Positions 4,525-47,632 are shown, numbered from the stretch's first letter. The stretch is DNA of 64,000 nucleotides from an uncultured bacterium (GCA_964010765.1 CAXGMD010000001.1:14988-78987); one strand, 5' to 3'. The notes: generated by a model from the letters alone, not told the origin. Numbers and translations: made by a program.

Positions 4525-4593
4525 TCTTCTCCAAACAGTCTGACGAACCCTGGGCCGAGTCGCAAGGGTTGGCCTCCATCAAGTAAGTTCATC

Positions 4594-4971
4594 ATGAGGG
4601 AATTATATCTTATTCGAAGTAGTAAGACTGAGGAGTGGGAGAATGGCGTACGCAAAGTGAGCTTTGCGTGTGATGATCCAGATATCCATGCATTTGTCTG
4701 GCTCGATCTACGAGAGCGCTTAAGCGGAATTCAAATCATCTTTCGTGAGAAAGTTCTTGAATGGGATAAATCTTCGGGAGTCAGTCGTGGCGATACTAAT
4801 CGTGAAGCTGATGAGGAGGTTCATGGTTATCAGAAGGGTGCTAGATCAATTCACAATCAAGTGCATAGCATTGATCAATCAGACTTGGCACTTTTGAAAA
4901 CTTTACTGTTCCCAGGGGAATGGGATTCTTTAATAAAGAGTTGCTTCAATGTTTTGGAAAAGGGGAATTAG
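4594..4971 (+). CDS. hypothetical protein (125 aa)
   Basis: ORF with no recognisable motifs; first gene of a plus-strand cluster ending in mfd. Confidence 0.4.
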   Translation: MRELYLIRSSKTEEWENGVRKVSFACDDPDIHAFVWLDLRERLSGIQIIFREKVLEWDKSSGVSRGDTNREADEEVHGYQKGARSIHNQVHSIDQSDLALLKTLLFPGEWDSLIKSCFNVLEKGN

Positions 4972-5359
4972 TCTTTGCCTACTCCTGCTTCCCATGACTA
5001 ATATCTTGAAGGCAGATTTCTTCAAATGGGATGTGGTAGTCTATGCGGAAGGTTATGGGTTATCGCATGAAGTCTTTGCCGTTCGGGAAGCGGGCACAAT
5101 CTGGGAACAGGGTGACTGGATTTGTGAAATAAGTGATTTCTGGACTACGATCACAAGTGAACTACTACTGGAAGGGAAGACCTTGAAGTGCCAACAGGGC
5201 GAGACAGAGCGTTTCGTAACCGTCACTTGTGATTTAAATAACAGGGGTCGCCAACACAACTCCTTCAAAGAACAATTCTCCCTTACGAATGCTGGATTCC
5301 ATTTAGAACCTGAAGATAGAATCAATTCTGCCTATATCCGTCTTCGCTGCTACTACTAA
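4949..5359 (+). CDS. hypothetical secreted protein (signal peptide)
   Basis: N-terminal hydrophobic signal-like segment ISLCLLLLPMTNILKA; overlaps the preceding ORF by 23 nt in a different frame. Confidence 0.45.
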   Translation: MFWKRGISLCLLLLPMTNILKADFFKWDVVVYAEGYGLSHEVFAVREAGTIWEQGDWICEISDFWTTITSELLLEGKTLKCQQGETERFVTVTCDLNNRGRQHNSFKEQFSLTNAGFHLEPEDRINSAYIRLRCYY

Positions 5360-5378
5360 TTACTATCCTAGTTCCCGA

Positions 5379-6182
5379 GTGATCGCACAGATTTTGTCCT
5401 TCCTTTCGCTTCAGTTATTTAAGAGTGCAACAGTCCGTGAACTCTGGTCAAAAAACCATAGGGAGATCGAGTTCAATAGTGGGCCCTGGACACCCCTAAA
5501 AAAGCCGATTGAGGAATCTCAGATATGCTTGATTACTTCGGGGGGGCTTCATCTAGACACAGATCCCCCTTTTGATATGGGTGATCCCAACGGGGATTCC
5601 ACTTTCCGCACTATTCCTCTAGATTCTGATTCCAATAAATGGCAGATCACACACAATTACTACGATCATGCGGATGCTGAAAGAGATTGGAACCTTATTT
5701 TCCCTTTGGAGCGACTTCGTGAATTAAGAAATTTCGGAAAAATTGGTTCTCTGTCCAGCAGCCACTTCTCTTTGATGGGACACATCACAGGTCCTCACCT
5801 ACCAACATTACTTCATCAAACTGCAAAAGAGTTGGCAGATCGTTTACGAGATGAATACACAGATTTGGCGCTTCTTGTACCAGCTTGAGGACTGTGTAAC
5901 CAGACGGTCGGTCTGGTACAAAGAAATCTTGAGGCAGCAGGGATCTCAACCATTAGCATAACGATTATGCGAAGTATCACGGAACGACTATTCCTCCCAA
6001 GATCCTATCACCTGCGTTATCCCTTTGGTCACGCGCTTGGGGAAGTTGGAAATCGAAGCCAACAATTGCAGATTCTGATGGATTGCCTGAACCTTCTAGA
6101 AAACGCTGAAAAACCTGGGACCATCATGGATGCTCCTTACCTTTGGAAACGCCATCAATTTGAGGAACTTTTTCCTGCATGA
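5379..6182 (+). CDS. Glycine/sarcosine/betaine/D-proline reductase selenoprotein B (GrdB/PrdB) family protein; candidate selenoprotein with in-frame UGA at 5886-5888
   Basis: ORFs 5379-5888 and 5967-6182 share one frame and are separated only by TGA, with no other stop between them. Read-through gives ...LALLVPA-U-GLCNQTVGLVQRNLEAAGISTISI, a U-x-x-C motif followed by a G..AGI.T..I stretch as I recall for PrdB/GrdB. The upstream PLERLRELRNFG segment also resembles PrdB. GTG start. Stop overlaps the mfd ATG (ATGA). Confidence 0.6.
5899..5917 (+). promoter_or_regulatory. SECIS-like stem-loop (ACCAGAC-GGUCG-GUCUGGU) beginning 13 nt after the in-frame UGA
   Basis: Perfect 7-bp stem with a 5-nt GU-containing apical loop, and a possible extended stem with a bulged A. 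The distance from the UGA matches bacterial SECIS geometry. Confidence 0.5.
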
Positions 6183-16992: not shown

Positions 16993-19761
16993 TTGACTCT
17001 CCAAAAACTTCTCCTCCATCTAATTTTATTTATCTGTTTGTGTGAAAATACCCTCTCAATTCCTCATGCTGAGACAGTAAAATCCAATCAGAATGAAATC
17101 CTCTCAAAAATTCATATTGATTGGCAAAATTGGTTAGTCGCACTACGACAAAATTCTAATGCTGTAAAGGAGTTGGTCAGCAAAAGTGAGGACTGGAGGG
17201 ATTTGAGAGGTTCAGGCCCCTTTGCCGGAATGACAGTGGTTATGTTGACTACAAAGATGGGTAGTATTGAGCAACTTGAAATAATTTTGGCAAGAAAACC
17301 TGATCTCTCAACTCAAGATGAATTAGGCAAGACAGCTCTTCATCATTTACTTGAACGCAAAGGAATCTTCACTGGGCATCTCAAAAAATTGTTGGAGGCT
17401 GGTGCGCCAATTAATCAAGGTGATGTGATTTCAAATAATCCGCTTCACTTGGCTGCAGCAAAAGAGGGAGTAGAGAGTTTAGAGTTGCTCATTCAATATG
17501 GTGCGAACCTAGAAGCAATGAATCTTTCTGGAAAAACACCTCTGATGGTAGCTGCTACAAATGGTAGAAAAGCGAACGTAGAGTTTTTAATTAGTTCTGG
17601 TGCAGATCCACTAGTGGAATCTGCCTCTGGATATAATGCCTGGATGTTTGCTGCAAGAGGGGGACATGAAAAGATATTAGAACTTTTAATCCAAAATTCT
17701 GCTTATCAGATTGAACATACAGAGAAGATGCATTTAAGAAATGCACTTCACTTGGCCACAATTGAAGGCCATTTGGAAACAATCAAATTCTTAATCTCCT
17801 CTGGATTGAACGTCAATCAGGGGGATAATCTTGAATTGACACCACTTCATCTAGCTGTCAGTTCAAAAAAACCAGAATCAGTAGATCTTCTCCTCAATAA
17901 TGGAGCGAGCGCTTATCTCCAAGATAATACAGGTATAACTCCCCTAGAGTTGGCAGTAATGTCAGGGGATCTGCAAATACTTAAACTACTTTTAAAACAG
18001 CCTCCAGATGCTCCGTTGGCAACTTCAGCAAGAGAGAATGCATTAAGAGAAGCTGCATTTCAGGGTAATTTTAACTTAGTTCAAGAACTGGTTCAACAAA
18101 ACATCGCTCCACATACCAAGAACATAAATGGACAAACAGCATGGATTGTGGCTGTTTCTGCGGGGAACAACGAAATTGCCGACTATCTTGCTTCACAGCC
18201 TGGACCACAAGCTCTTAACGTCATTTTTGCAGCAGAATTTGGTTTCAATGAACGTCTTTCAGTTCTTCTCAAAGAAAATGTTGGTGTAAATATTTCAGAT
18301 GTTCGAGGATTCTCTCCACTAATGCTTGCAGCAGGCAGAGGTGATGTAGAAATGTTGTCTAGTCTAATCAAATCTGGTGCTGACATTAATCACCAAAGCT
18401 TACAAGGCTGGAATGTACTCTCTTTGGCAATCTCAAGTGGTTCAATAGAAACAGTAAAAAAGATATTACAAGTAGATTCAAAATTGATTTTTCAAGAAGA
18501 TAAAGAAGGTTGGAACGCACTGCATTGGGCTGCATTTCATGGTGATTTAGAGATCATTAATCTCCTCTTACCTTTCACTGATGACGTGGACAAAAAAGAT
18601 CATCAGCAAAGAACTCCACTTCAATTAGCAGCAATAGAGGGTCATCAAAGCATCGTGAGAACACTGATAGAGTGGAAAGCATCAGCGTCTTTAAAAGATC
18701 AATCTGGTCGAACTGTAATGGAACAAGCAATTCTGTATCGGCAAAAGGATGTTCTAGAAAATCTTTTTATCCTGGGCATCTCGGCCAGTGCGGGTCTCAG
18801 GTACGCGTCTTCAATTGGTGAAGTAGAATTATTACCTTTATTTCAAAAGTATGGAGCCAATCTAGATGAAGCAGATGAAGATGGGAATACCCCGTTATTG
18901 TTGGCTGTTTTAGGTGAACATCAAGAAACTGTATCTGGGTTACTTGATTTCGGTGCTGATCCAAACCTGACGAATGCAAAAGGACTGACTCCTTTGATTT
19001 TGGCCATTAGAAGCCGTCAGCCTAGTCTTACATCGATTCTGTTGAAGTATCCATTAGATCTTGAAAGGCAAGATCCTTTTGGAAATACATCTTTATTGAC
19101 TGCTGCTCTCAATGGAAATGAAGAGATTGTAGACCAATTAATAATTGCTGGGGCCAAATTAGAGCATTCAAATTACATGGGACAGAATGTTCTCCATCTA
19201 GCTGCATTACAAGGGCAAGTAGGTATAGTCAAAAGATTACTTGATGCGAATTTAAGCCCAATGAAGACAGATCAATTCGGGTTGACTGCTTTTCATAGGG
19301 CTGCTGAAAATGGTCATGCGGGTGTGATTAGAACTTTTTTGGAAACGAAAACAGTCGATCTCAATATTAATGTTCTTGATGCACACGGTGATGGTGGTAC
19401 ACCATGGCTTTTAGCTGCTAAACGCGGTCACATCAATGTGCTCGAAGTTTTGTTAGAAGCCAGTGCAGATTCTGATGCTGTTGAACTGCTCAACGGAACA
19501 ACTGCCCTTCAATTTGCCTCAGCAGAAGGAAAAGAATCTACAGTTCGATGGTTGTTAGAAAAAAAACTATCAAAAATTGATGAAACAGACTTTTTGGGAA
19601 ATACTGCCCTGCACTACGCATCTCAAAAAGGTCAGGAGTTAGTTATAGACGAATTGATGAGGTGGGGAGCAAATCCGCAGAAAGAAAATTATGAAGGAAA
19701 AATACCATCAGAGATTGCTCAAAAATTATCAAATGACACTACACTAAACACTCTTAATTAG
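16993..19761 (+). CDS. Secreted ankyrin-repeat protein (922 aa, about 25 ANK repeats)
   Basis: Signal peptide LLHLILFICLCENTLSIPHA followed by many 33-aa ANK repeats (TPLHLAA..G..E....LL..GA); gene looks AT-richer than its neighbours. Confidence 0.9.
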   Translation: MTLQKLLLHLILFICLCENTLSIPHAETVKSNQNEILSKIHIDWQNWLVALRQNSNAVKELVSKSEDWRDLRGSGPFAGMTVVMLTTKMGSIEQLEIILARKPDLSTQDELGKTALHHLLERKGIFTGHLKKLLEAGAPINQGDVISNNPLHLAAAKEGVESLELLIQYGANLEAMNLSGKTPLMVAATNGRKANVEFLISSGADPLVESASGYNAWMFAARGGHEKILELLIQNSAYQIEHTEKMHLRNALHLATIEGHLETIKFLISSGLNVNQGDNLELTPLHLAVSSKKPESVDLLLNNGASAYLQDNTGITPLELAVMSGDLQILKLLLKQPPDAPLATSARENALREAAFQGNFNLVQELVQQNIAPHTKNINGQTAWIVAVSAGNNEIADYLASQPGPQALNVIFAAEFGFNERLSVLLKENVGVNISDVRGFSPLMLAAGRGDVEMLSSLIKSGADINHQSLQGWNVLSLAISSGSIETVKKILQVDSKLIFQEDKEGWNALHWAAFHGDLEIINLLLPFTDDVDKKDHQQRTPLQLAAIEGHQSIVRTLIEWKASASLKDQSGRTVMEQAILYRQKDVLENLFILGISASAGLRYASSIGEVELLPLFQKYGANLDEADEDGNTPLLLAVLGEHQETVSGLLDFGADPNLTNAKGLTPLILAIRSRQPSLTSILLKYPLDLERQDPFGNTSLLTAALNGNEEIVDQLIIAGAKLEHSNYMGQNVLHLAALQGQVGIVKRLLDANLSPMKTDQFGLTAFHRAAENGHAGVIRTFLETKTVDLNINVLDAHGDGGTPWLLAAKRGHINVLEVLLEASADSDAVELLNGTTALQFASAEGKESTVRWLLEKKLSKIDETDFLGNTALHYASQKGQELVIDELMRWGANPQKENYEGKIPSEIAQKLSNDTTLNTLN

Positions 19762-42611: not shown

Positions 42612-43904
42612 TTGACTGAAATGAAAGTAGCCATCTACAACAACCTCACAGACTTTCAACAAGCGACACCTCCAGAATTTTCTGACGAAATCAGTAATAG
42701 CGTTCGTGAAATTATTGGCCAGGTGAGGGCTCAGGGTGACAAAGCTCTGAAAGATTTGACTAGCCGGTTCGATGGTGTCTCGCTGGATCAAATTCCTGTA
42801 CCAACTGAATATCTAAAAGGCTGTCTAGAAAAAATGGATAAGCATCTTCGTTCGGTCTTAGAAGAGGCTGCAGATAATATTCGTCGTTTTCACCAAAGAC
42901 AAAAGCAGCAGAGTCAGATGGAATTTGAGCCAGACGGGACTCTGCTAGGTTGGAAGGTCACTCCTGTTGATGCCGCAGGTGTTTATGTGCCGGGTGGGAG
43001 AGCGGTCTATCCTTCAACACTGCTAATGAACGTTATCCCGGCTCAGGTTGCTGGAGTGCCCAGACTGGTCATGGTGTCTCCTCCAAATCGAGAAACGGGC
43101 TTTCCCCATCATTTGGTTTGTGGGGCAGCCGCCTTGGTGGGCGTAGAGGAAATCTATGCAGTTGGCGGAGCACAATCTGTTGCTGCGCTTGCCTACGGTA
43201 CAGAGTCCATCTCAAAAGTTGTCAAAATAACTGGACCTGGAAACGCATACGTTGCCGAGGCAAAAAGACAGGTATACGGTCTTGTAGGGATCGATTCGAT
43301 TGCCGGCCCTAGCGAAATCATGGTGGTCTGTGACCGAGAGGACATTCCAGTAGAATTCTTGGTGAGAGATCTACTCTCCCAAGCTGAACACGATCCAGAT
43401 GCAGGTGCGGTACTGGTCACAACATCTCGAAGCCAAGCAGAGGCAGTTGCAAAAAGATTGGAAGAATTGATCCCATCCTTACCCAGAAAGGAAATTCTCG
43501 AAGAATCATTCCGACAAAGATCCGGGATCATTGTGGCTAAAAATCTAGAGGAGATCTTTGACGCTATCAACGAGATTGCTCCCGAACATTTAGAAGTGCT
43601 GACTCAAAACCCTATGGAGGATTTACATCGTATTCGTAACGCAGGGGCAATTTTCTTGGGTCCTCACACTCCTGAACCTGTGGGTGATTATTTTGCTGGA
43701 CCGAACCATACGCTTCCTACTTCCGGTGCTGCCCGCTTTGCGTCGCCTCTTGGTGTCTCAGATTTTGTAAAAACGAGTTCAATCCTCTCTTATTCCAAGA
43801 CAAAGCTCCAACAACAAGGTCCCTCTGTAATGCGATTTGCTCAAGAAGAAGAGTTATTTGCACATGCAGAAGCTATCCGGGTTCGTTTGGAAAGTAGTTT
43901 TTGA
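42612..43904 (+). CDS. hisD: Histidinol dehydrogenase
   Basis: Conserved HisD blocks (GGAQSVAALAYGTESI, IDSIAGPSEI, SQAEHD, HLEVLT). Confidence 0.95.
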   Translation: MTEMKVAIYNNLTDFQQATPPEFSDEISNSVREIIGQVRAQGDKALKDLTSRFDGVSLDQIPVPTEYLKGCLEKMDKHLRSVLEEAADNIRRFHQRQKQQSQMEFEPDGTLLGWKVTPVDAAGVYVPGGRAVYPSTLLMNVIPAQVAGVPRLVMVSPPNRETGFPHHLVCGAAALVGVEEIYAVGGAQSVAALAYGTESISKVVKITGPGNAYVAEAKRQVYGLVGIDSIAGPSEIMVVCDREDIPVEFLVRDLLSQAEHDPDAGAVLVTTSRSQAEAVAKRLEELIPSLPRKEILEESFRQRSGIIVAKNLEEIFDAINEIAPEHLEVLTQNPMEDLHRIRNAGAIFLGPHTPEPVGDYFAGPNHTLPTSGAARFASPLGVSDFVKTSSILSYSKTKLQQQGPSVMRFAQEEELFAHAEAIRVRLESSF

Positions 43905-44150
43905 TGTGAATCCTTCCAGAATTTTTTCATCTCAATCCAATCTGCTCTCTTTTCTCTTCTTCTCAGCCTCCTCTCTGCGTAGGTTATTCTGGATCATTTG
44001 ATTTTCTTACTTAGAACGTATTATTTTAGTAAAATTATTCTGTAATAATTGTAAAATACAGAAATTTATGTAAGGTCTATTATAACTTAAGAAAGTAGAT
44101 AGTTTTTATTTAAGTCAAATATTATATAAGAATCTTACAAAAAAATTTAC

Positions 44151-44897
44151 GTGGAAAGAAAAAAATTATTACTGCTTGAAGAGAGTTCAGAGACAGCAAA
44201 AAAATTGATGCCTTCTCTGAATACCAAATTTGAAGTGACTTGGGTTAGTGGTGGACTTGATGCGATGTTGCTATTCGGGTATCAAAACTACCAAGTCTTG
44301 ATTCTCGAGACAAATCTGCCTGATACTGATGGTTTGCAGGTGATTCGTACCATCCGAAAGTATGGATTTACGTTACCAATAATTATATTGAGCGAACGAG
44401 AAACTGCTCAGGACAGGATAGTTGGTCTGCAAGCTGGTGCTGATGACTACCTTACTAAACCGGTTTCTTTGCAAGAGTTGATGTTGCGGCTGGAAATTCT
44501 TATAAGGAGAATAGGACTCTCAGAAGAATCTGCAAAGGGTTGCGTGCTTAGAGAAATAAACTTTCCTTCATCAGAGTTGCGTGTTGGTGATGTGATAATT
44601 CATCGTACAAATCGAACAGTGAAGCGAGCCGGATCCTCCATTGAATTAAGGAAAAAAGAATTCGAACTTCTAGAATTGTTAATGGAGCATCCTAATGAGG
44701 TGATGAGTAAGCAACGAATTATGGACACACTTTGGGGACATGGACTGGATGCAAATGAATCGAGAGTCATTGACAATCACTTGTGCCGATTACGAGCGAA
44801 ACTTGATAAAGGATATGAGAAGAAGTATATCAGCACCAAGCGAGGAGCGGGCTATACGTTTGTAAATCAAGAAGATGAGAAAAGAGTTATTATGTAA
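44151..44897 (+). CDS. OmpR-family response regulator with Glu replacing the phospho-acceptor Asp and both acidic-pocket Asp residues (atypical, probably phosphorylation-independent)
   Basis: Receiver aligned to E. coli OmpR by eye: ILVVDDD becomes LLLLEES, LMVLDLMLPGEDG becomes VLILETNLPDTDG, and the conserved S/T and K (YLTKP) are retained. Followed by a winged-helix output domain (RLRAKLDKGY...GAGYTF). Flanked by AT-rich spacers. Confidence 0.8.
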   Translation: MERKKLLLLEESSETAKKLMPSLNTKFEVTWVSGGLDAMLLFGYQNYQVLILETNLPDTDGLQVIRTIRKYGFTLPIIILSERETAQDRIVGLQAGADDYLTKPVSLQELMLRLEILIRRIGLSEESAKGCVLREINFPSSELRVGDVIIHRTNRTVKRAGSSIELRKKEFELLELLMEHPNEVMSKQRIMDTLWGHGLDANESRVIDNHLCRLRAKLDKGYEKKYISTKRGAGYTFVNQEDEKRVIM

Positions 44898-44971
44898 AAA
44901 ATTGATTAAATAAAAAATAAATTTTTAAAAATTTTTCTGAAATTTTGATTTCAAAAGTCCACTAAGATTAC

Positions 44972-46210
44972 TCAGAGTGTTCTTTGATATGTAACATTTC
45001 CACCATCCCAAAAATCATTGGCAAAGTTATCTAGATTCCAAGTACTCGTAAACATCAAAGCACCTCCACCCACATAATCATTTCGGACTTCCCAACTAAT
45101 TCGTAATTTGCCTTCGGGTCCTCTATCCTCTTCTTTCGAAAAATCATTTAAGTTGATGATCGATTTATCTACCTGACCCAAGTAAATTCCAGTTTCCCAA
45201 GCGGTTTCATTGCCCAGGAGTTGACGCATAGAACCAAACCATTGATAGGAATAAATAGTATTCTCTTCGCTTTCGTTTACTGCATTTAGCTGAAGTAAAT
45301 GATGCCGAAACATGTCGTATCGTAAACCGGCATTCAAATACCAATCTTGAGCTAGAGGACCATCAGCTTGCAGTATTTGTTGCGACCAACTTGCCTCCTG
45401 ATAGCGATGATCAGATGGATCAGGAGAAATAGTCACTTCTCGATATTTTTCAGAACGAAATTTTTTCCATTGCCATCCGAGTGTCCAATCAGGATTCCAC
45501 TGATGCTCAATAAGTAGTTGTTGCTGTGTCTCTTCATGTGAGAAATTCAGGGCTAGGGTTGGATCCAGTAATTTCATGGGTAGTGATTCAGTCCATTTAA
45601 ATCCAAATTCCCAATCATCCCCAAGCCAAGTGCCTTCAACTTGGTTTTCAATTGGATGGGGGTCTTGAGTTGATTGATCATAAAGATTTTTCTCGTTATA
45701 AAATAAGTTTTGTCGCAGTTGATGTAGTCTAAGGAAGCTCTCCTGACGGTCTCCAAGGGTGATGAAGGCCCCGTAGTCTGCATTTCGTTTGTCAAATTGA
45801 GGTTGCCCGGCAATTCCAAGTGTGACTTTAGAACTCGCCTGCCAGCCCACCTCGATTTCAAAATTTAGTGGTTTTCTCTCATAAAACTCTTCATGGTCCA
45901 TTCTGACACTAGCGCTGAATCCTCGACTCAGTTGTTCAATTAATTTCAACTGGAATTTCAAAAAGAGTAGGTCCAGTCCAAGGCTACCCCCAGTCATACG
46001 CCAACCTTGTTCAGCTCGACGCCATTTTCGATCTTGTGCTGCACTAAATAAATATGACTGGATGTCGAGAAAATTTTCTCGATTTAAGTGAAAGGCATCT
46101 ACATTTGTAGCTCCATCGAAAGCATGTAGATCTTTGGAAATGCCACTCAAGAAAATTAGGAGAAAAAAAGAGAGGAGAAGCTGGCTTGGATTGGTTCGTC
46201 GAATTTCCAT
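44972..46210 (-). CDS. putative outer-membrane beta-barrel protein
   Basis: Signal peptide; Trp/Tyr/Asn/Gly-rich alternating pattern. Confidence 0.45.
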   Translation of the reverse strand: MEIRRTNPSQLLLSFFLLIFLSGISKDLHAFDGATNVDAFHLNRENFLDIQSYLFSAAQDRKWRRAEQGWRMTGGSLGLDLLFLKFQLKLIEQLSRGFSASVRMDHEEFYERKPLNFEIEVGWQASSKVTLGIAGQPQFDKRNADYGAFITLGDRQESFLRLHQLRQNLFYNEKNLYDQSTQDPHPIENQVEGTWLGDDWEFGFKWTESLPMKLLDPTLALNFSHEETQQQLLIEHQWNPDWTLGWQWKKFRSEKYREVTISPDPSDHRYQEASWSQQILQADGPLAQDWYLNAGLRYDMFRHHLLQLNAVNESEENTIYSYQWFGSMRQLLGNETAWETGIYLGQVDKSIINLNDFSKEEDRGPEGKLRISWEVRNDYVGGGALMFTSTWNLDNFANDFWDGGNVTYQRTL

Positions 46211-46624: not shown

Positions 46625-47632
46625 TTGAATTGGTTAAAAAATGAAGAAAGTGGAGCAATACATGGAGCAGCTGTGGCCGATGCAGCAAGCCGCCCTCTTC
46701 ACTGGATTTATGATCGTGAGAAGATGGAATCACTCTTAAAAAAAGTATTTCAGCCAGAGTTTTGGCCAACCAGTGAATCCCCATTCTACACACTTCCAAC
46801 TGGTGCGCACAGCTCTTACTTTGATACCACAGTCGTGATGCTCAGAGCCCTTGGAGAGAACGGTGGTAATTTTAATCCTTCCATTTTCTTGAAAAAAGCC
46901 GAGGAACATTTTGGATTGAATTCCGCTTACGAAGACTCATTTCAAGACTGAAAGAAGCGGTATGCTGACGCGAAAAGGGATGAAAAAACACCTGGACCAA
47001 TTAATGGGCCTTGGCGGAATGGTTTGATGACCAAAATGTTGGAGAATCACCGATTAACGGGTCAGATCCCTTTGGGACCTGAAGACGCCTCTGAGTTGGA
47101 TGCCTTCTGCGCAGCATTCCCTGTTTTGTTGATTGAATCCAGCGAAGAATCTTTGGAAAAATCAAACTCAGCTTTGAAGCTGCTAGCTAATAGCGAAACC
47201 TGTAGCGACCATGCTTTGGTGACAGGAACACTGCTGAAATGGGCGATTGATGCTGAATCTGAGCCTGTCAACAAACTTTTGACTGATTATCCAAAGCTGT
47301 TTTCGCAAAAGGTGAAAGAGGAAATCGAATTGATCGTTGAGAATCTTGATGAAGACAATACAGATTTTGTTGAGCGAATTGGCAAAGCGTGTCCTTTTCC
47401 TGGGACCTTCCAAGGAGCAATGCACGCTGTTTTGAAAGGTGAATCTTTCATTGAATCCGTCAGGATGACTATCCGAGCGGGAGGATGTAATTGTTCAAGA
47501 GCTATTCAGGTTGGGGCAATCTGTGGTGCTTTGTCAGGGGAAGAGGCCATACCGCAAGATCGGATACAGCAGACCCATTCCTCCAGTGAGTTAAAACATC
47601 TTCTGAATGATTTGTTGGCCAGTAAAGATTGA
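46625..47632 (+). pseudogene. ADP-ribosylglycohydrolase-family gene interrupted by an in-frame TGA (46949-46951); pseudogene or recoded
   Basis: ORFs 46625-46951 and 47024-47632 share one frame and are separated only by TGA. The N-terminal GAIHGAAVADAASRPLHW aligns to the ARH motif GxxxGxAxGDAxGxPxEF. The C-terminal AGGCNCSRAIQVGAICGALSG aligns to GGDTDT..AIAGALAGA with the Asp residues lost. TTG start, no Shine-Dalgarno, and no convincing hairpin after the TGA. Confidence 0.55.

Follow-up and report, generated by a model that had tools for sequence, protein, structure and literature searches.

Response regulators that lack the usual phospho-accepting aspartate, called aspartate-less or pseudo-receiver regulators, are common, and their workings are poorly understood (PMC12632262). 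The positions most often altered in these proteins are the acceptor Asp itself and the second residue of the acidic pair, DD2 (PMC4395418, PMC12632262). Glu is the commonest replacement found in aspartate-less receivers, at 26% (PMC4395418). A change of Asp to Glu does not by itself activate CheY, PhoB, or Spo0A (PMC4395418, PMC12548384), and little effect has been seen when the natural Glu is replaced by Ala or Asp in ChxR, or by Ala in CmrT (PMC4395418, PMC12548384).

Several representatives have been described in detail. CmrT of Clostridioides difficile is an OmpR-family protein with E53, T80, and K102 that appears to be constitutively active, with a hydrogen-bonded pocket that mimics the active state (PMC12548384). 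For ChxR of Chlamydia trachomatis, dimerization and activation require no phosphorylation, and the protein binds direct repeats within its own promoter (PMC3960148). AtvR of Pseudomonas aeruginosa is presumed to be active whenever it is expressed, such that control is exerted through transcription (PMC12548384). A deletion in the pocket region has been reported for ChxR and also for HP1043 (PMC4395418). The pseudo-receiver examples studied so far come mostly from pathogens or from Streptomyces.

Here we describe a regulator from a 64,000-nucleotide stretch of DNA of an uncultured bacterium, which is called the window below. The proteins encoded by neighboring genes and the homologs of the adjacent hisD gene carry the source label "SAR324 cluster bacterium". 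As judged from its sequence, the protein belongs with the Glu-type aspartate-less regulators, because it has a receiver domain in which Glu replaces the acceptor Asp. An earlier note, made from the same DNA by eye, had drawn attention to this gene and had offered several claims regarding its residues, its independence from kinases, and its origin.

A response regulator gene downstream from hisD

The segment that carries the gene (43905-44971) starts one base past the stop codon of hisD and ends one base before the stop codon of a convergent gene for a 412-aa protein. It holds a single ORF, which begins with GTG and encodes 248 aa (Table 1). The product is an OmpR/PhoB-family response regulator with two Pfam domains, namely Response_reg (PF00072; 2.8e-19, 69.7 bits against a cut-off of 30.2) and Trans_reg_C (PF00486; 4.3e-24, 84.8 bits against a cut-off of 26.2, residues 162-237). 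The NCBIfam models likewise place the protein within the OmpR family, with RpaB as the top match (156.6 bits; cut-off 330). All 25 of the 25 models shown for named OmpR-family equivalogs (RpaB, PhoB, CopR/CzcR, OmpR, and others) scored well under their curated cut-offs.

Among the orthologous loci, the GTG start is conserved wherever it is readable, and the first 19 codons are conserved too. The possibility of a pseudogene or a mis-called start was considered and rejected, given that the N-terminus is conserved at the protein level despite saturated dS and that Met20 is not conserved.

Table 1. Positions of the regulator gene, its parts, and the adjoining features in the window
Feature	Position	Strand	Basis or remarks
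hisD	42612-43904		Upstream of the regulator; Histidinol_dh 3.5e-161
hisD-to-regulator spacer	43905-44150	+	246 bp, GC 0.264; presumed promoter/operator region
WGTAAAAT-like repeat AGTAAAAT	44028-44035		Upstream spacer
WGTAAAAT-like repeat TGTAATAA	44041-44048		Upstream spacer
WGTAAAAT-like repeat TGTAAAAT	44050-44057		Upstream spacer
Gene for OmpR/PhoB-family response regulator with predicted pseudo-receiver (aspartate-less, Glu type)	44151-44897	+	Pfam, NCBIfam, PDB alignments, AlphaFold, Foldseek, dN/dS
Receiver (pseudo-receiver) domain, residues 4-121	44160-44513	+	PDB alignment, residue census, model superposition, dN/dS
Interdomain linker, residues 122-141	44514-44573	+	PDB alignment gaps, pLDDT, dN/dS
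Winged-helix DNA-binding effector domain, residues 142-240	44574-44870	+	Pfam, invariant residues, dN/dS
Spacer between the convergent regulator and 412-aa genes	44898-44971		74 bp, GC 0.149
Convergent gene for 412-aa protein	44972-46210	-	No Pfam match

An AlphaFold model based on 66 sequences (mean pLDDT 84.7) is confident for both domains, whereas residues 123-139 of the linker fall below a pLDDT of 50 and are disordered in the model. This linker is poorly conserved, and gaps in the PDB alignments indicate that it exceeds those of DrrD and PrrA by 11-14 residues. A Foldseek search against the PDB matched the model to the canonical OmpR/PhoB regulators DrrD, PrrA, KdpE, and PhoP, and over 114-120 residues the modeled receiver deviates from PmrA receiver structures by 0.9-1.0 A. 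The receiver is modeled as a complete (beta-alpha)5 fold, without the pocket-region deletion of ChxR and HP1043. All of the family-invariant residues of the winged-helix domain (W195, R215, K217, T229, R231, G232, and G234) are present, as are the charged residues that the family conserves along alpha4-beta5-alpha5 (R89, D98, D99, E109, R113, and R120).

Glutamates in the phosphorylation pocket

The residues of the pocket were placed by aligning the protein, with phmmer, to DrrD, PrrA, and M. tuberculosis PhoP, three regulators of known structure; these alignments have no gaps in the receiver. E10 and E11 (44178-44183) align with the acidic pair, and E53 (44307-44309, GAG) aligns with the phospho-acceptor Asp. 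S81 (44391-44393) occupies the T/S position and K103 (44457-44459) that of the conserved Lys. Also kept are Y100 (44448-44450) at K-3, P57 at D+4, and G61 at D+8. Among the features that define a canonical receiver, the acceptor Asp and the second acidic Asp are absent, and the T/S residue, the Lys, and the aromatic residue at K-3 are present. The earlier note had recognized the gene product as OmpR-type, with an acceptor-site Glu and with the conserved S/T and K retained. Its by-eye alignment was correct on each of these points, and no Asp is found at the acceptor position in the HMM-based alignments.

The same note had counted three Asp-to-Glu substitutions. All three positions are indeed Glu, but the first of them is normally Glu in related proteins. 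In a census of 356 receiver stretches, taken from proteins fetched for comparison, E outnumbers D at acidic position 1 by 229 to 27. At acidic position 2 the counts are D 228 and E 24, and at the acceptor position they are D 313 and E 29, with nearly all of these E residues coming from the regulator's own clade. Because Glu at acidic position 1 is usual in OmpR-family relatives, the departures from the family norm (E-D...D) are two only, E11 and E53. The replacement of the acceptor Asp by Glu53 and of the second metal-binding Asp by Glu11 should make phosphorylation by a histidine kinase in the usual way impossible.

Distribution and selection

A protein identical to that encoded in the window is found on at least 22 marine metagenome contigs, from Tara Oceans and other collections, and in one NCBI MAG. 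Orthologs with 73-99% identity occur in metagenomes only. Glu stands at the acceptor position in every one of them, whereas acidic position 2 is Asp in a single one, P0004. When 1.84 billion representative proteins were searched exhaustively, the regulator gave one 50%-identity cluster; the matches beyond its own clade are generic Asp-bearing regulators with 35-41% identity, and none exceeds about 41%. A whole-protein scan of species genomes returned unrelated regulators only, at 30-42% identity and dominated by the generic LQAGADDY pattern.

Ratios of dN to dS were calculated by the Nei-Gojobori method for the window gene against six orthologous loci. They range from 0.13 to 0.37 for the whole gene, from 0.05 to 0.13 for the DNA-binding domain, from 0.14 to 0.89 for the linker, and from 0.07 to 0.28 for the receiver, which reaches 0.39 in one near-identical pair (L092, dS 0.04). 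The regulator gene is functional, because dN/dS is low in the receiver and in the DNA-binding domain. The comparison with L089 is the deepest (dS about 1.6) and gives a ratio of 0.07 for the receiver and of 0.12 for the DNA-binding domain. Because purifying selection on the receiver matches that on the DNA-binding domain, the pseudo-receiver is constrained as strongly as the output domain and is not decaying. The Glu itself is maintained; the window and L089 encode E53 by GAG and GAA, respectively, and E10 by GAA and GAG. A further conserved residue is Cys212 in the recognition helix, which is shared by the full-length orthologs and departs from the family consensus.

Two observations concern the metagenome assemblies themselves. 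On one 650-bp contig (P0108), residues 1-77 of the regulator are fused in frame to a fragment of imidazoleglycerol-phosphate dehydratase (PF00475), which is probably a chimeric assembly. In the lineage with 73% identity (L088-L090), all three contigs have an end that lies upstream of the regulator gene at a distance of 0-130 bp, suggesting that the AT-rich spacer is a place where assemblies break.

The flanking spacers

The upstream spacer aligns across the orthologous loci. Its 5' part is pyrimidine-rich, and its 3' part carries direct repeats that resemble WGTAAAAT (Table 1). The outer two of these repeats have a 22-bp spacing, which is found at every locus with both copies, the divergent L089 among them. 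Because the repeat spacing is conserved in orthologs, we retain, only as a lead, the idea that an OmpR-type dimer might use the repeats as its operator, possibly to regulate its own gene as ChxR does. WGTAAAAT occurs 10 times against 6 expected, and the 22-bp-spaced pair is unique in the window, yet at least one such pair appears in 23 of 200 block shuffles, so that the pair is not significant by itself. Alternatively, the motifs could be -10-like hexamers.

Neither spacer holds an Rfam family or an intrinsic terminator, and a promoter scan of the upstream spacer gave one match (44096-44125), at chance level. The downstream spacer contains a weak 6-bp hairpin only, and it folds no better than shuffled sequence. 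Directly past the hisD stop codon, positions 43905-43990 (+) form a tract that is rich in C and T and poor in G, with no intrinsic terminator predicted; this tract might be a Rho-dependent termination site for hisD. A 17-nt inverted repeat (43947-43963/44870-44886; 94% complementary) was evaluated as a structure or as a terminal repeat and was set aside, given that it decays in L095 and L087 without compensatory changes. Its arms lie in the pyrimidine-rich tract after hisD and in the last codons of the regulator, and the repeat is probably a product of chance in low-complexity sequence.

A proposed mode of action

The reading that we favor, at somewhat better than even chances, is that the gene encodes an orphan, lineage-specific transcription factor of the OmpR/PhoB family whose pseudo-receiver supports a phosphorylation-independent dimer and whose output is set mainly by expression level. 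This proposal proceeds by analogy with CmrT, ChxR, and AtvR and goes further than what the sequence shows, namely that normal Asp phosphorylation chemistry is closed to the protein. The Glu-lined pocket, together with S81 and K103, would hold the receiver in an active-like state, and dimerization would proceed via alpha4-beta5-alpha5 without phosphorylation. The resulting dimer would bind direct repeats. Output would be governed mainly by the amount of protein, as determined by the conserved AT-rich upstream region and by the conserved weak GTG start, and autoregulation might occur at the WGTAAAAT repeats. The other features that an active-state fold needs are intact, among them S81, Y100, K103, P57, and G61, the alpha4-beta5-alpha5 charged residues, and the winged helix.

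The claim in the earlier note that the regulator is kinase-independent is, by analogy, the most reasonable inference given the Glu acceptor, the frequency of Glu among natural replacements, and the parallels with CmrT, ChxR, and AtvR. Its companion claim, that Glu at the acceptor site acts as a phosphomimetic, fares less well. It is not established as the cause of activity because exchanges of this Glu barely change ChxR or CmrT and because a change of Asp to Glu alone fails to activate other regulators. By the same analogy, Glu is perhaps not what makes the regulator active.

The main rival explanation, which we regard as possible though rather unlikely, holds that the pseudo-receiver is a regulated input domain. 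Its signal might be a small ligand or metal in the pocket, methylation of Glu, a change at Cys212, or formation of a heterodimer with a canonical regulator. According to reviews, other pseudo-receivers are controlled by ligands, by other modifications, and by heterodimers (PMC12632262, PMC4395418), and precedents include JadR1 for a ligand, RitR for Cys redox, and WhiI/BldM and possibly CmrT/CmrR for heterodimers. The three carboxylates of the pocket are all conserved along with S81 and K103, as is the unusual Cys212, and the receiver is held more tightly than the DNA-binding domain in the deepest comparison, which is not obviously needed for passive dimerization. However, the modeled receiver has a minimal canonical fold with no ligand-binding insertion or extra domain, the window is without a gene for a partner regulator, and no result favors a particular signal.

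A further suggestion, which we consider improbable, is that the Glu-Glu-Glu pocket is more than a dead phosphorylation site and serves in sensing, with a divalent cation or a modification of Glu as examples of the signal. If this were true, SAR324 would have gained at hisD a one-component sensor made from the receiver fold, which would act as a clade-specific global regulator.

Composition and history of the segment

The regulator gene is not a compositional outlier, but its two spacers are. The GC content of the gene is 0.403, compared with a mean of 0.441 +/- 0.024 for genes in the window (z -1.56, rank 5 of 50), and its GC3 is 0.365 compared with 0.398 (z -0.86). Codon positions 1 and 2 account for most of the GC deficit, as the encoded protein has many Lys, Glu, Leu, and Ile residues. 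The spacers have the two lowest GC values among the 25 intergenic regions of the window, for which the mean is 0.379, and hisD, at 0.473, lies at the high end. Thus, the statement in the earlier note that the gene and its spacers are far more AT-rich than hisD applies with full force to the spacers, but the GC3 of the gene is host-like.

The order hisD, regulator, 412-aa gene, MAPEG is unchanged in the close clade. In the lineage with 73% identity, where dS is saturated, the regulator, the 412-aa gene, and MAPEG are still together. A sister SAR324 lineage (L104) has hisD followed after 76 bp by a 409-aa homolog of the neighboring protein and then by MAPEG, with the regulator missing. Its hisD is 79% identical and its 409-aa neighbor 52% identical to those of the window, and the GC content of its locus is 0.555. 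About 12 bases past the hisD stop codon are recognizably shared (window GTGAATCCTTCC vs. L104 GTGGATCCTTCC). Two other lineages, L107 and L108, whose hisD is 77-81% identical, have another gene after hisD, and more distant lineages differ again. Because the 1,067-bp segment is missing from the same junction in L104, it is a true lineage-specific indel.

These data can be set against the idea, very doubtful in our estimation, that a foreign gene was recently acquired on an AT-rich islet and is silenced by a nucleoid protein. Such an islet would explain why no other intergenic regions of the window are as AT-rich as the two beside the gene, why the segment is absent at the L104 hisD/409-aa/MAPEG junction, and why the search of representative proteins found no relative above about 41% identity outside the clade. 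It is opposed by the host-like GC3 of a gene whose lower GC is a matter of amino acid composition, by strong purifying selection, and by the fixation of the gene with the same neighbors in many independent marine assemblies, with orthologs to 73% identity. Around the segment we found no mobility genes, no flanking target-site repeats, and no terminal repeats, and there is no identifiable donor lineage. We therefore read the regulator as an old, fixed, lineage-specific gene rather than a recent foreign islet. The 1-kb island of the earlier note is real as an indel, though old and fixed. The note had envisaged horizontal acquisition; a recent transfer is unsupported, given the composition, the selection, the synteny to 73% identity, and the lack of a relative above about 41%.

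Orphan status

No HisKA or HATPase_c domain is present in any ORF of at least 150 aa across the 64-kb window, which agrees with the earlier statement that no histidine kinase gene is nearby, and no gene for a partner regulator lies within the window. Least credible of all is a conventional phospho-accepting regulator whose kinase is encoded elsewhere, for although most orphan regulators are typical and have distant kinases (PMC12632262), and although the receiver features other than the acceptor Asp and DD2 are intact, every ortholog has Glu as the acceptor, all but one also have Glu in place of the metal-binding Asp, and acyl-phosphate signaling on Glu is not known in bacteria (PMC4395418).

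The region on the other side of hisD differs among lineages. In two sister lineages of higher GC content (L104 297-4450; L107 18-4056), hisD is preceded by genes for Usp, a histidine kinase of 914-918 aa, and a single-domain receiver of 144-146 aa that has a canonical acidic pocket (IIEDD...LILMDVMMP). In the window, this place upstream of hisD is taken by genes for a DAO-type oxidoreductase and a peptide ABC transporter. In SAR324, the neighborhood of hisD is a hot spot for rearrangement.

Other genes in the window

The convergent 412-aa protein has an N-terminal hydrophobic segment that resembles a signal sequence, and it has no Pfam match even at E = 1. The members of its family with a named source are all from SAR324 or Deltaproteobacteria, with identities of 21%-100%. 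A functional link between this gene and the regulator was considered and not retained, because the distant homologs of the 412-aa protein are not beside any regulator and the adjacency is therefore uninformative.

Farther downstream, an ADP-ribosylglycohydrolase-like gene (46625-47632, +) has one in-frame TGA (46949-46951), after which the same frame continues. The resulting split, into about 108 aa and 201 aa, is common to all independent assemblies of the clade, whereas the L104 homolog is an uninterrupted ORF of 335 aa with His/Arg around the position aligned with the TGA. Because no Cys aligns there, the TGA does not appear from the alignment to be an obvious selenocysteine site. The gene could be a fixed pseudogene, or it could be subject to read-through or recoding.

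Two other genes deserve mention. The first (16993-19761, +) encodes a protein of 922 aa that consists almost entirely of ankyrin repeats (Ank_2 4.5e-125, 11 stretches), which is unusual in a free-living marine bacterium; its GC3 of 0.289 is the lowest in the window. The second (5379-5888, +) is an ORF of 169 aa whose match to glycine/sarcosine/betaine reductase selenoprotein B is confined to the C-terminal part (profile positions 218-343 of 347). The 854-bp "intergenic" stretch upstream of this ORF (4525-5378) has a GC content of 0.441 and is coding-like, and it may be the rest of the selenoprotein B gene, read through an in-frame TGA selenocysteine codon.

Comparison with known regulators

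The best sequence and fold matches to the SAR324 regulator are the canonical proteins DrrD (1KGS), PrrA (1YS6), M. tuberculosis PhoP, and PmrA, with E values of 3e-32 to 1e-29 and identities of 29-31%. These canonical OmpR/PhoB regulators share its domain order, its alpha4-beta5-alpha5 residues, and its wing-helix residues. Unlike the SAR324 regulator, all of them have Asp at the acceptor position and at acidic position 2.

CmrT has the same architecture, Glu at residue 53 as the acceptor, and an altered second acidic position (PMC12548384). The two proteins also correspond at T80/S81 and K102/K103, at Y in position K-3, and at G in position D+8, and the receiver fold of CmrT deviates minimally (PMC12548384). 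In contrast, the gene for CmrT shares the cmrRST operon with genes for a kinase and a canonical regulator, and CmrT is without Pro at D+4. The SAR324 regulator stands alone and has Pro (P57) at that position; its acidic residues are E-E compared with D-G-D in CmrT, and its linker is longer. The CmrT receiver structure (2QZJ) is not among the 60 best PDB matches, and no specific sequence relationship was seen.

ChxR is also an orphan OmpR/PhoB-family protein with Glu as the acceptor (PMC3960148, PMC4395418). It differs in that part of its pocket-side secondary structure is missing and its dimer interface is unusual (PMC4395418), and its linker has 8 residues compared with about 20 in the SAR324 regulator. 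ChxR is absent from the 60 best PDB matches, which are mostly canonical regulators, and the SAR324 receiver aligns without the deletion described for ChxR. AtvR likewise has Glu as the acceptor, has lost one DD residue, and has kept T/S, K, Y (K-3), P (D+4), and G (D+8) (PMC12548384), but it carries an output domain of the NarL family instead of the OmpR/PhoB winged helix.

HP1043 (HsrA) of Helicobacter pylori and RitR of Streptococcus pneumoniae are further orphan members of the OmpR family that act independently of phosphorylation, as we propose for the SAR324 regulator, and both are among its PDB matches (2HQR, 5.9e-17; 5U8M, 8.9e-19). RitR differs in having an Asn acceptor and in sensing redox state by Cys (PMC4395418, PMC3960148). 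HP1043 differs in binding inverted repeats and in having a pocket region that is partly missing (PMC4395418, PMC3960148).

Among the papers retrieved by a literature search on SAR324 and response regulators, none deals, to judge from titles and abstracts, with a SAR324 regulator of the Glu-type aspartate-less kind. The protein described here is a new example of the well-described Glu-type pseudo-receiver regulators and reveals no mechanism that is new. It is a clean natural example with minimal deviation, in which the acceptor and the second acidic residue are the only changes and both are Glu. Its host belongs to an abundant uncultured marine group, purifying selection on the gene is clear, and its gain or loss can be dated at a defined junction. 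The SAR324 regulator could serve as a simple test of whether Glu-type pseudo-receivers mimic the phosphorylated state.
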